From a virus: DNA of 64,000 nucleotides. This document shows, one piece after another, positions 19,365-22,987 of this stretch. Every line of letters begins with the position of its first letter. The first letter of the stretch is position 1. The DNA lies in UHGV virus genome UHGV-0164982. The stretch is one strand, 5' to 3'. Under the pieces are notes generated by a model that saw nothing but the letters and a program-made list of their open reading frames with translations, was not told where the DNA came from and ran no database searches. A program made the position numbers and the translations under genes.

Positions 19365-20066
19365 TTATTCTGATTCTCGCTCAAAAAATGAGCTGATAAG
19401 GGGAAGCCAATCCTCTGACACTTCGCGAGGTCGCGGTTTGCCGTGGAAAAAGATTATTCGGCAGTCTTTTGGTAATGCCCCATTCCCCCTGGAGTAACGC
19501 GCGCTCGCATATTTTGAACCAGGTTCCACAACATCGGCCTTGTAACTTACAAACCATCCTGGATACAGATCCTGAAATGCTGGTGTATCATCGCCCATAA
19601 CCTTTCGTAAGAACCCCTGGTCACCCCAACACTCAGTAGTGACACAACGAGAAATCCAACCTTCCGGATCTTGCCAGAATGCACTCCAGATATGCGCTTT
19701 AACACTATTTGGTATCCACAGGGCACCGCTGCCACGATATTGTGGATGGTAAAAATCCCTAAGCATGGTGAAGCTGGTTGGTGGATGCTCTAGGATTGGG
19801 CGTATATCACCGGCAATAACCGTGTCCAAATCCAGATAGAACAGATCATCGGTTATATCCGGTCGGAACAACTCGATTTTCGCCCACCAGCCACGGCACT
19901 TTTGCCACTGGTTGATCAATGGGACAACTTTGACGCCAGGTACATGTAAACGCTTCAGGTCTGTCAGGCAAATAATTTCATAGCCTTTTGGCAGTTGATT
20001 AACCAGCCACTGCACATCGGAAGCGTTATAGTCACCACCAGAGCGAAAAACTAAAGCAATCTTCAT
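19365..20066 (-). CDS. putative glycosyltransferase-like protein (DxD motif)
   Basis: 233 aa; YLDLDTVI motif; fold assignment from pattern only. Confidence 0.35.
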
Positions 20067-20755
20067 GCTGCACCATCACCTTTCACTTTCATCAATGTCA
20101 GGTTTCCGCAAAATACGGCACCAGTGTCGATATACTGCTGATTCCAGAATGTCTTCGGGCTTTTCACCGGAGTGTGACCAAAGATAAAACGATCTGCGCC
20201 CGAAATTTCGCCACCAATATCATCCATCGAATCACTGATACGCTCGCGCGCCCAGACAACGTTGAAAAGCGGCACCTCCTTACCGAATTGGTATTCATTA
20301 TCCGGATAGTCGGCATGGGCTATAACGATAGTTTCTTGCCCGGTGTTCAACTCAATGATATAGGGCAGACGCTTTACCAGCTCCACCAGCGCCCAGGCTA
20401 ATATTTCCTGATCAGTGTCCAGCATGAAGAACCATTGTCCGCCATTCATTAGCCAGTTATTCACGTTGCCATCAGGACTTAACGCATCGAGCATCAACCG
20501 CTCATGGTTCCCCATTACTGCCCTGAACCAGGGCATCTGCAATAGTTCCAGACATTCGACATTTTCAGTACCGCGATCGATAAGGTCGCCGACCGATATC
20601 AGTAAATCCTGCGCCGGGTCAAAATCCACACGATGGAGTTCGGATATCAGTCTGGTGTAGCAACCATGCAGATCACCAACAACCCAGATATTCCTGTATT
20701 TGGTACCGTCGATACGGTGATAAATTGTTGGTGCCATCATGTATTCTTCAGCCAT
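20063..20755 (-). CDS. ppp: Ser/Thr protein phosphatase (lambda PP-like)
   Basis: GDLHGC, GDLIDRG, GNHE metallophosphatase motifs. Confidence 0.85.
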
Positions 20756-21363
20756 TCTTTAAGAGTCACCTGCGGAATACCTCCCATTTTCCCGCATGAA
20801 ACAACGTCAATCTGTTCACGCGCAGACTGGAATAACAAAGGCAGGTGACTTAGATTTTTTGGCGTGCCGCCGGAGTGAACGCGTGGTTCTTGCGTAGCGT
20901 CAACGCCCACCAGGGCGACATGTTTGAATCCGATATGGAAAGCCAGGTTCAGAGCACCATATGAACTATTGCCGCTGGCAATTTCATTCTCATCTTCACA
21001 AAGGCCGAAATGTGCGGACCAGCGCCACGCCCACCACTCGGGAGAATTCGTATTTTTTGGCTCCGTGCCGCGTTCAGCCACACGACGGAAGCACAGAACG
21101 CCATCTCTGACTTCACGTTCTTTAACATCGGGTAGTGCCATGCAATAACAAACACCACGGCGACGGCGGCCACGACCAACGCGCCGCATATTGTCTGGCG
21201 ATGGATCAAGTGTGAAAAAATAAGAAGCGCGGTTCAGCCAGTCGATGGCCCCATTGACCGCTATAATAGGCACTCCGCGCGGCGCAACAAAGTTTGCGGC
21301 GCTTGGGCCACTGCCGACGATAATAACGCGATCACTGCCTCTAAATTTATTCTTGGGAAACAT
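20737..21363 (-). CDS. DUF115/MAF_flag10-like protein
   Basis: IVGSGPS...IAVNGA motif; paralog of the next ORF. Confidence 0.45.
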
Positions 21364-21923
21364 TGAATTGCACTGCTCCTACTTGCATTCAAAATATGTA
21401 AATCTGCGTGTTTTTTGCGGGTATCCAGGAACTGCTGTTGCCATTTTGAAATAGACACCTGCGTTGGATTCCGTAGGGCTTGAGGGTGCGCGCCATGCCA
21501 ATGAAGGCCGTTTTGCAGAGAACAGTCATAGCCGACTAATACCACTACTTCAGCCCCTGATTCAGCAGCCAAACTGATAGCCTGCGCGCCGCTATTTACC
21601 CCTTCCGCCGGTCCACAATATCGCCTGTACTCCAACGAAAATGATTTCGCCGCCGCCAGGTTGGCTGTCACTTTGCGGAATCTCCCTCCCGGTATGGTGG
21701 ATCCGTATTGCTTCCACCATGACAAATCACCGGCGTATAAGGCATAAATGTCATCGAACATCTGCCAGGAATTGTTAACCGCGATGATTGAACAGCCAGT
21801 TTTTTCTATAGCAGCACAGTCCTCACGAGTGAGTGACGGACCGCTACCGACACAAAAAACAGTCCTAGTCGCCCTGGGTGATATGTTCATTCTCAGCTGC
21901 AAATTCAGCCTCCAGGCGAGCAT
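21261..21923 (-). CDS. DUF115/MAF_flag10-like protein (paralog)
   Basis: CVGSGPSL...IAVNNSW motif. Confidence 0.45.
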   Translation of the reverse strand: MLAWRLNLQLRMNISPRATRTVFCVGSGPSLTREDCAAIEKTGCSIIAVNNSWQMFDDIYALYAGDLSWWKQYGSTIPGGRFRKVTANLAAAKSFSLEYRRYCGPAEGVNSGAQAISLAAESGAEVVVLVGYDCSLQNGLHWHGAHPQALRNPTQVSISKWQQQFLDTRKKHADLHILNASRSSAIQCFPRINLEAVIALLSSAVAQAPQTLLRRAECLL

Positions 21924-22086
21924 TCATTTCAGCGATTACAGGGTCCACTACAGCATCTGTTTCCTGTTCATTACGCGGCATGATCGATGCCAGCGATTCA
22001 TAATTAGCCTTGGATGACACGATTATTCTCCCGATGTTAATGTGCGCTATATCAAATGGCGCATATGTACTAATTAATTTATTATT

Positions 22087-22665
22087 TTAAGCAGCATACA
22101 ACCACTTGTCGCCGTTCAATACATGCTCAATAGCCTCACCCTTTTTAAGGCTTATGTATTCCAGGATGGCGGTTATCGCTTGTTCTGCACCATACGCAAG
22201 AACGACGTAGTAACCTTCCTCTCTAAGCCTGCGCATCCAGGCGATCTGCTCTTTCGTCGGGGCTTTACCATTTGGTTCTTTAAGCTCAATTCGCATGCCG
22301 TGATAAATACCGCATGCTTTATCGAGACTCATGTCCGGATAACCTTTTTTCTGCCCTTCAGCCTTCATTTTCCCGGCGGTTGCTTTTGAACGTTTCCCTC
22401 CGTTAGGCGTTGCATGCAACAGCTCATAGATGTCAGGGTGCTTGCGTTCGAAGTAATCAAAAATGAAAACCTGCTCGAAGTGCTCGCAATTTCCGTCGCG
22501 CAGGTCTGGGTTCTTTGCCAGTGCTGCAAGTGCCTTCGCATGTGGAGAAACTTCTTTTACCGGCGCAAGCGATAAGAATGGATCCTTTTTGGTTTTTGGC
22601 CTGGACCGCCCCTTATTTCGACGCTCACTAAAAGCCTGAAACTCTTCCTCAGTAAAGCGCAACAT
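22087..22665 (-). CDS. VRR-NUC-like nuclease domain protein
   Basis: 192 aa; GYPDM...E.K pattern suggestive of PD-(D/E)xK. Confidence 0.4.
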   Translation of the reverse strand: MLRFTEEEFQAFSERRNKGRSRPKTKKDPFLSLAPVKEVSPHAKALAALAKNPDLRDGNCEHFEQVFIFDYFERKHPDIYELLHATPNGGKRSKATAGKMKAEGQKKGYPDMSLDKACGIYHGMRIELKEPNGKAPTKEQIAWMRRLREEGYYVVLAYGAEQAITAILEYISLKKGEAIEHVLNGDKWLYAA

Positions 22666-22667
22666 AA

Positions 22668-22913
22668 TCAGTCAAATCCTGCCGGTCGCATGCCATATTT
22701 ACGCTGTTTTGCGGCCTGCTCTTCCCTGTGCCATTGCGCACATTCAGCGTCACAATAAATGCCTGATTCAATCGATTCATTGCAGTAACGACACTTCCCT
22801 GTAAATACCTGGCTCACGACCTGTGTCTGCTTTCTGATGTTATCGATGGCCATGTCTTTGAGAGCTTCTAACTGATTCATGCTCAGCTCTGCATCATCAA
22901 CACGTTCTGCCAA
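22668..22913 (-). CDS. small zinc-ribbon protein
   Basis: 81 aa, CRYC...CDAEC. Confidence 0.45.
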   Translation of the reverse strand: MAERVDDAELSMNQLEALKDMAIDNIRKQTQVVSQVFTGKCRYCNESIESGIYCDAECAQWHREEQAAKQRKYGMRPAGFD

Positions 22914-22970
22914 TTTTGTTTCCTCGTGAAGAACCTACTTAAGGGCAGAATGATACATTCCACAATCAAA

Positions 22971-22987
22971 ATTGCACTAATAATTTT
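22971..22987 (+). promoter_or_regulatory. C1 operator-like site in divergent promoter region
   Basis: ATTGCACTAATAATTTT, 15/17. Confidence 0.5.

Follow-up and report, generated by a model that had tools for sequence, protein, structure and literature searches.

Among the closest described counterparts of the genes considered here are cassettes of mycobacteriophages. In Cluster O and F phages such as Corndog and Che8, capsid and tail-tube proteins are modified by phage glycosyltransferases (Freeman et al. 2023, in the summary given by PMC11600133), and the cassettes, as that summary presents them, combine tandem glycosyltransferase genes with an O-methyltransferase gene and carry no sugar-nucleotide synthesis genes of their own. 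We analysed a stretch of viral DNA of 64,000 nucleotides (UHGV virus genome UHGV-0164982; this whole stretch is called the window) that contains a gene block of phage P1 type, and its core, pmgO-pmgP-pmgQ, is best read as a mobile three-enzyme cassette predicted to carry out glycosylation. Across the cassette family, glycosyltransferase genes in tandem, in some members accompanied by an O-methyltransferase gene, were found in structural or late regions, and relatives of pmgOPQ parallel the mycobacteriophage type: beside the capsid gene they encode three transferases and in some cases a methyltransferase. The P1 cassette has three transferases, no methyltransferase, and an annotated late promoter upstream. 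Unlike the mycobacteriophage type, it comprises two DUF115/Maf-like enzymes and one GT8-like enzyme, its hosts are Gram-negative, and virion modification by its members is a prediction. The enzyme families differ from those used in DNA glucosylation, in Gtr-type O-antigen modification, and in mycobacteriophage virion glycosylation.

The interval from 19200 to 23100 of the window was 98.7% identical to phage P1 (AF234172/AF234173) over 100% of its length and 98.1% identical to phage P7, and it corresponds to pmgL–pmgQ in a phage of the P1/P7 type. All seven open reading frames (ORFs; pmgL, pmgM, pmgN, pmgO, pmgP, ppp, and pmgQ) lie on the minus strand and match annotated P1 genes one to one. 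A first-pass annotation, made from the sequence without database searches, had placed six genes here, which correspond correctly in coordinates and strand to pmgQ, ppp, pmgP, pmgO, pmgM, and pmgL; it overlooked pmgN. In P7 the last five genes are named hdmA-D and ppp, with the label 'head morphogenesis'. Database entries already provide the gene names and the generic labels 'glycosyltransferase' and 'alpha-2,3-sialyltransferase', of which the latter is an over-specific transfer from fold-level similarity. The term 'norphogenetic protein', a typing error for morphogenetic, has spread across many RefSeq and GenBank records of PmgP and PmgO homologs. PADLOC found no match to a defence system. The three genes of the core are the following.

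21261-21923, minus strand: pmgO, predicted transferase of DUF115/Maf/CstII fold, paralog of PmgP.
20737-21363, minus strand: pmgP, second predicted transferase of DUF115/Maf/CstII fold.
19365-20066, minus strand: pmgQ, predicted GT8-like GT-A glycosyltransferase with a DxD motif.

The pmgO and pmgP reading frames overlap by 103 nucleotides in different frames. The PmgQ of the window is 99.6% identical to P7 HdmD and 97.4% identical to P1 PmgQ, and its PmgO is nearer to P1 (99.1%) than to P7 (97.3%); the element is therefore a P1/P7 mosaic.

An AlphaFold2 model of PmgQ (predicted local distance difference test, pLDDT, 94.1) was compared with the PDB using Foldseek, and the top 50 matches were all GT8-type enzymes (E 1e-8 to 7e-7), in the order AgtA (6mw5, 1e-8), glycogenin, WbbM, GlyE, and LgtC, with template-modelling (TM) scores of about 0.55-0.58. 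A PmgQ profile matched AgtA 6mw5 in the PDB as well (1.4e-5), and it is because of this match and the fold that we place PmgQ with GT8. Glycogenin, the Skp1 alpha-galactosyltransferase AgtA, and Streptococcus pneumoniae GlyE are retaining, Mn/DxD-dependent uridine diphosphate (UDP)-hexose transferases that extend glycans on proteins. These top fold and profile matches share 12-17% identity with PmgQ. The DxD motif that the first-pass annotation had picked out in this 233-amino-acid protein is D79-L-D81-T, which is invariant in an alignment of 23 sequences, together with H208-G-x-P-x-P213. The latter belongs to the C-terminal stretch FHGKPRP (H208-G209-x-P211-x-P213), which aligns with 'HYTGATKPW' of WaaJ and 'SSNPKPWE' of AgtA but is shorter than a motif of the H-x-x-G-x-x-K-P-W type and has no tryptophan. 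The model supports the prediction that PmgQ is a GT8-like, DxD-dependent GT-A glycosyltransferase; within this group PmgQ represents a separate subfamily of small proteins carried by phages.

PmgO and PmgP are paralogs as judged by profile comparison: with a natural fusion of the two (described below) left out, hhalign aligned them over 164 columns with a probability of 98% and E 1.6e-13. PmgO belongs to phrog_4603 (4.4e-74), and the PmgP model (pLDDT 94.8) has the Rossmann-like fold common to Maf, CstI/II, and MptE, with the Maf glycosyltransferase as the nearest fold match. The motif GSGPS...IAVN, which the first-pass annotation had noticed in two DUF115-like paralogs and likened to sialyltransferase-like MAF/DUF115 enzymes, is present in both proteins and conserved in their families. 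In PmgO, G-S-G-P-S occupies residues 26-30 and is followed by G131-Y-D133; the corresponding elements of PmgP are G-S-G-P-S at 17-21 and G153-V-D155, and these GSGPS and GxD motifs align to GNGPS and SGID of CstII. Invariant residues of PmgO include G28-P-S30, D133, and H141/H143, and those of PmgP include D155 and H173. Relative to the annotated P1 start, PmgO homologs start some 17-20 residues later, so that this start may lie too far upstream and the true one may be the internal methionine at codon 12 (MNISPR...). Compared with Maf and the GT42 enzymes CstI and CstII, with which they share 12-19% sequence identity, PmgO and PmgP are minimal proteins of ~180-210 amino acids that lack the substrate-binding flanks of Maf (632 amino acids in 5mu5). 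The two probably work as a pair.

To examine the wider distribution, we used hidden Markov model (HMM) maps covering loci from genomes, IMG/VR, and sequenced phages, and these revealed a collinear pmgO-pmgP-pmgQ trio at some 30 loci other than P1, with phage backgrounds that are lambdoid, HK97/D3-like, podo-like, jumbo, and lytic. Carriers include the Citrobacter rodentium lambdoid phage phiNP, a Pseudomonas D3-like prophage, a podo-like metagenomic phage, the Escherichia coli lytic phage EP_H11, and the Xanthomonas jumbo phage XacN1, plus about 25 more loci. Outside P1-like phages, PmgO, PmgP, and PmgQ are the only members of the block that co-occur, and because the trio occurs without the other genes, we regard these three proteins as the functional unit. 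The identified hosts are all diderm and range from Gammaproteobacteria to Bacteroidota and Gemmatimonadota, and an exhaustive search with the PmgP profile yielded only 619 clusters at 50% identity.

The three enzymes are repeatedly joined to each other and to enzymes of related function. A metagenomic protein of 376 amino acids (P0092) is a natural PmgO+PmgP fusion; its gene comes immediately after a lysis cassette, and the genes next in line encode a PmgQ homolog and another DxD protein. The 619 clusters include fusions in the orders P+Q (P0220 and P0289), Q+P (P0299), Q+P+methyltransferase (P0274), and methyltransferase+P (P0300), and ORF373 of XacN1 is a TylF-like O-methyltransferase fused to PmgQ. 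Elsewhere, genes inserted between P and Q encode FkbM-type methyltransferases (1.6e-15), class-I methyltransferases, a small DxD protein resembling nucleoside diphosphate (NDP)-sugar transferases, and GT2-like or GT-B-like proteins. A variant cassette in D3, PAJU2, and the Klebsiella phage Eowyn consists of a PmgO-like gene, a gene for ~275-296 amino acids, and a methyltransferase gene. The PmgO-like genes at the head of this variant in PAJU2 (ORF010, L190:4474-5043) and Eowyn (L192:4004-4576) were deposited with the label 'structural protein'.

The position of the cassette follows a recurrent pattern. In HK97/D3-like phages it comes after the major capsid gene, with a small ORF of ~95 amino acids between, and in the Pseudomonas D3-like prophage the trio lies between the major capsid and head-completion genes. 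It is interleaved with a head-completion gene in one locus (L121), follows the portal gene in a second (L122), and follows the large terminase gene in a third (L102), and in lambdoid and other phages it is located between lysis and terminase genes, as in phiNP, where it lies between Rz and terS. The ~95-amino-acid ORF between the major capsid and PmgO-like genes (L191:4337-4624, which is D3 orf6.5; L118:5061-5354; L101:9280-9561; L121:5648-5932) has a low-complexity tail rich in Ser, Thr, and Pro and a basic C-terminus; in D3/HK97-like phages its product may be a glycan acceptor or a decoration protein. Beyond phages, the trio was present in chromosomal islands, where it flanks type V secretion adhesins. 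In Pseudescherichia and relatives (L095:5357-11248, also L096-L099) the adhesin is a 1178-amino-acid inverse autotransporter with seven Big_1 domains, accompanied by a second Big_1 protein. The flanked adhesins also include a Big_1/RCC1 protein of 999 amino acids, a pair of small Big_1 proteins (about 296 amino acids each) in Serratia (L086:674-3115), and a 1456-amino-acid classical autotransporter (L125:1808-8774). These island copies may represent a domesticated system for adhesin glycosylation.

A census of the surroundings, in which Pfam was run on 141 neighbouring ORFs from 25 non-redundant loci, returned chiefly genes for portal, capsid, prohead protease, lysis, and tail completion, together with 13 methyltransferases; no family of sugar-nucleotide synthesis, lipopolysaccharide (LPS), or DNA-base modification appeared among the 25 most frequent. 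The census bears on the suggestion of the first-pass annotation that these genes might modify DNA. Phage DNA would be an acceptor common to all carriers, and phage DNA glycosyltransferases are an established class, with the T4 alpha- and beta-glucosyltransferases as examples; in this reading the cassette would glycosylate DNA bases to evade restriction. Because no gene providing a modifiable base accompanies the cassette, with no hydroxymethylase or base-modifying gene among the frequent neighbours in P1 or in the other loci, DNA is an unlikely target. Copies beside chromosomal adhesin genes fit poorly with a DNA target as well, and P1 DNA, a long-used substrate for cloning and transduction, has ordinary bases and methylation. 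We consider this the least probable explanation of all, with hardly any weight left to it. A form of it in which the MptE/thiamine-pyrophosphokinase fold would serve hypermodification through pyrophosphorylated hydroxymethyl bases was set aside, as no hydroxymethylase or base-modification gene is in the company of the cassette.

The same fold raises another explanation, in which PmgO and PmgP would be pyrophosphokinases resembling MptE and thiamine pyrophosphokinase, their substrate would be a small molecule or nucleotide with a hydroxyl group to be activated, and PmgQ and the methyltransferases would process the product. The fold by itself is unable to tell glycosyl transfer from pyrophosphokinase activity. 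What speaks against this possibility is the constant pairing or fusion with glycosyltransferases and with FkbM- and TylF-type O-methyltransferases of the kind that act on sugars, the nearest fold match to a Maf glycosyltransferase, and the census, in which no gene for synthesis of a candidate substrate accompanies the cassette. We regard a pyrophosphokinase role as very unlikely.

Our preferred reading, which we hold tentatively and with slightly less than even confidence, is that pmgO-pmgP-pmgQ is a late-expressed glycan-building cassette that probably uses host cytidine monophosphate (CMP)-3-deoxy-D-manno-oct-2-ulosonic acid (CMP-Kdo) and UDP-hexose and modifies proteins, those of the virion being the likeliest acceptors. 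Three soluble cytoplasmic enzymes would assemble a short, sometimes O-methylated glycan step by step: PmgO and PmgP would add one or two ulosonic acid residues, most plausibly from CMP-Kdo, PmgQ would add an alpha-linked hexose from UDP-hexose, and the most likely acceptors would be virion proteins of the phage itself, produced in the same period. The fusions and combinations with other glycosyltransferases and with sugar methyltransferases suggest such stepwise assembly. The donors would be supplied by the host, since no nucleotide-sugar synthesis gene is among the frequent neighbours of the surveyed cassettes. CMP-Kdo is proposed because it is the only universal CMP-ulosonic acid across the hosts and because the Kdo transferase WaaZ belongs to the same superfamily; E. 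coli K-12 is not known to produce pseudaminic, legionaminic, or sialic acid, and the donor of PmgO and PmgP would therefore have to be CMP-Kdo. A protein acceptor is favoured because of the embedding in head modules, the co-expression with structural genes, the copies flanking adhesin genes, and the protein-glycosylating nature of Maf; the deposition of PAJU2 ORF010 as a 'structural protein' also counts in its favour. A more specific version, namely a minimal machine for Kdo-containing O-glycans on capsid or tail proteins, with domesticated copies in some enterobacterial chromosomes glycosylating Big_1 inverse-autotransporter adhesins, seems to us rather unlikely.

The acceptor is the weakest link of the proposal, and several observations weigh against the preferred reading. 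In P1 itself the neighbours of the cassette are tail and baseplate genes, not head genes, and the carrier phages have unrelated structural proteins, so that a virion acceptor would require relaxed or motif-based recognition. The terms searched for in the P1 virion proteome paper and the P1 cryo-EM paper gave no mention of glycosylated virion proteins in either. Family assignments at the level of Pfam are also incomplete: against a gathering threshold of 34.6 bits for PF01973 (MptE-like, formerly DUF115), PmgP scored 20.3 bits and PmgO 23.7 bits (E 4.5e-5), with many of their homologs carrying a precomputed match and the family member P0256 reaching 44.1 bits, and a Pfam search of PmgQ returned no family at E <= 0.1, leaving it short of the threshold of PF01501 (Glyco_transf_8). 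No biochemical or genetic phenotype of the cassette genes was found. According to a CRISPR interference (CRISPRi) paper, its knockdowns and a deletion survey that it cites (ref. 73) agree that pmgL, pmgM, pmgO, pmgP, ppp, and pmgQ are dispensable; a single-gene knockout library (PMC9024508), which that paper cites for the dispensability of these genes, does not contain these gene names in its main text. The same CRISPRi paper scored pmgN as essential, with an efficiency of plating of 1.4e-2, whereas its cited survey (ref. 73) lists pmgN as deletable, a discrepancy that may stem from polarity, from off-target knockdown, or from disturbance of the operator and promoter next to the gene. No gene of the block is required for plaques on laboratory E. 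coli. Searches of the literature for pmgO/P/Q, for WaaZ or DUF115 together with phage, and for virion glycosylation returned no functional study and no description of the conserved cassette, and the statement of the first-pass annotation that it knew of no described function stands, the literature found being limited to dispensability.

Some profile matches point to LPS, and remodelling of the LPS core is the main rival of the preferred reading. PmgO and PmgP would then resemble WaaZ and place an extra Kdo on Kdo2-lipid A, and PmgQ would resemble WaaJ or WaaO and add a hexose; the core of newly made LPS, the receptor of P1, would be changed or truncated, with the effect that progeny readsorb less to debris or that competitors are excluded. 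WaaZ, the Kdo III transferase of E. coli K-12 (CAZy GT73), uses CMP-Kdo, belongs to the PF01973 superfamily (1.5e-6), and has the N-terminal GxGPS...IAVNG and the GxD motifs in common with PmgO and PmgP, and the O+P fusion carries a faint precomputed match to PF27901 (WaaZ_KDO_III). In hhalign, the PmgP profile aligned with E. coli WaaZ over 29 columns (E 9.6e-4, probability 22%) and the PmgO profile gave E 4.2e-3 with a probability of 8%; PmgQ, which has GT8 motifs like WaaJ, aligned with E. coli WaaJ over 150 columns (E 5.4e-4) that span the DxD (DAD in WaaJ) and HxxGxxKPW regions. These matches are marginal: likeness to WaaZ and WaaJ stays weak over the whole set (E 5e-4 to 4e-3, probability 8-30%), which counts against LPS remodelling and, in the case of WaaZ, against the preferred reading as well. 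Kdo2-lipid A is moreover the sole acceptor conserved over all host phyla seen, which would explain how the cassette functions in unrelated phages, and several cassettes adjoin lysis genes. Other features argue against LPS. The P1 cassette genes are repressed by C1, and lysogenic conversion is therefore excluded; late expression would allow newly made LPS only a short time in which to arrive at the surface; and the repeated insertion in head-morphogenesis modules and beside secreted adhesins is not what the explanation predicts. Unlike WaaZ and WaaJ/WaaO, the cassette is found outside waa clusters, in phage late, structural, or lysis regions or in adhesin islands, and no LPS gene is among its frequent neighbours. 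On balance we think LPS remodelling unlikely.

The remaining genes of the block are the following.

22668-22913, minus strand: pmgL, 81 amino acids, DksA/TraR-type C4 zinc-finger protein, outside the glycosylation cassette.
22087-22665, minus strand: pmgM, 192 amino acids, predicted VRR-NUC (PD-(D/E)xK) nuclease, outside the cassette.
21865-22020, minus strand: pmgN, 51 amino acids, ORF restricted to the P1 lineage, phrog_2350 at 1.3e-36.
20063-20755, minus strand: ppp, predicted Mn-dependent Ser/Thr protein phosphatase resembling lambda NinI, inserted between pmgP and pmgQ.

The first-pass annotation was sound on the zinc-ribbon protein, the nuclease, and the phosphatase. PmgL matched phrog_54 ('DksA-like zinc-finger protein', 1.8e-12). 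PmgM reached 21.2 bits with Pfam VRR_NUC (PF08774, 3.1e-4), below the cut-off of 23.8, and matched phrog_5702 ('Holliday junction resolvase', 4.8e-27), with a PD...ELK motif in the sequence. Ppp scored 59.1 bits with Metallophos (PF00149, 1e-15; cut-off 21.5), and its translation has all three signature motifs of PPP phosphatases (GDLHG, GDLIDRG, and GNHE). It matched phrog_246 ('NinI-like', 3.8e-112), and the P1 record gives 64% identity to lambda NinI; Ppp lies within a glycosyltransferase cassette, whereas NinI lies in the nin region. As the match to NF008516 (6.3e-81) falls short of the NCBIfam equivalog cut-offs for PrpA/PrpB (271.6 against 326), Ppp is a relative and not an equivalog of these phosphatases.

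The first-pass annotation had taken the whole block for one modification module, and six or seven genes that run in one direction, closely spaced, between C1 operators in P1 would be in keeping with an integrated unit. In the HMM maps, homologs of pmgL, pmgM, pmgN, and ppp accompany the trio in P1-like loci only. In the P1-like Cronobacter phage JK004, pmgP and pmgQ are 40 nucleotides apart with no ppp between, and ppp was absent from this position in all non-P1 loci mapped; ppp is thus a lineage-specific insertion in the cassette. The four genes are P1-lineage neighbours and not parts of the cassette, and PmgN, considered as an acceptor peptide, was rejected for its restriction to the P1 lineage. 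The idea of a modification module survives for the glycosylation trio, and the phosphatase, nuclease, and zinc-finger protein drop out of it. The regulatory sites, listed next, argue in the same direction, and we judge a single module of six or seven genes to be highly improbable.

22971-22987, plus strand: C1 operator O26/Op82, with 2 mismatches to the consensus, the homologous position being annotated in the P1 record.
22064-22080, plus strand: internal C1 operator Oppp/Op83, position mapped from the P1 annotation.
19298-19314 and 19347-19363: C1 operators Op86b and Op86a, from the consensus scan and the P1 annotation.
19298-19363, no strand given: operator-terminator-operator element, Op86b and Op86a inverted around an intrinsic terminator hairpin.

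C1 operators were sought over the whole 64-kb window with a 17-mer consensus and <=3 mismatches, and 15 such sites were observed against 0.35 expected. The operator-like sites that the first-pass annotation proposed at the two ends of the block, singly at one end and around a terminator at the other, are C1 operators. Among the 15 sites is one overlapping pair at 33012-33039, and others are near 1281-1844. O26/Op82 overlaps the divergent promoters of pmgL and gene 26. The Op86 element forms a hairpin followed by a T-run on the minus strand (minimum free energy of the whole element -26.9 kcal/mol, z = -6.65); it ends the pmgN-pmgQ unit and controls pmgR/pmgS. Within the block, Oppp/Op83 is a weak match to the consensus that was not recovered at <=3 mismatches, and just upstream of it, within the 3' end of pmgM, the P1 record annotates the sigma-70 promoter PpmgN, where we found a promoter-like site at 22112-22084 on the minus strand. 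Given the internal operator and PpmgN, the block consists of two units, pmgL-pmgM and pmgN-pmgQ; and given the late promoter LPpmgL, which the P1 record places upstream of pmgL, it is not purely early. The early operon of the first-pass annotation thus holds as a description of co-oriented, tightly packed genes, and neither as one uninterrupted unit nor as an exclusively early one.

A further phosphatase gene lies at 17222-17728 on the minus strand of the window. This is P1 pap ('P1 acid phosphatase'), whose product matches PF25109, the HAD-type phosphatase domain of polynucleotide kinase-phosphatase, at 2e-11. The domain match suggests that Pap may act as a nucleic-acid 3'-phosphatase or in end-healing, rather than as a generic acid phosphatase. 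A PAP2 lipid phosphatase, which would have backed an envelope theme, was ruled out in favour of the HAD_PNKP type.

P1 is among the most used phages in genetics, and ever since annotation of its genome this block has kept the placeholder 'putative morphogenetic function', its knock-outs having no phenotype. Recognition of the cassette corrects the propagated annotations 'alpha-2,3-sialyltransferase', 'norphogenetic protein', and 'head morphogenesis', and yields a concrete hypothesis that is cheap to pursue. If LPS were the target, P1 would possess a mechanism of receptor remodelling in the lytic phase. If virions are glycosylated, phage virion glycosylation would be extended from mycobacteriophages to phages of Gram-negative bacteria, with a bearing on immune recognition in phage therapy, phage stability, and adsorption, and Kdo-containing O-glycans on virions would be the first case of ulosonic-acid glycosylation of virions.

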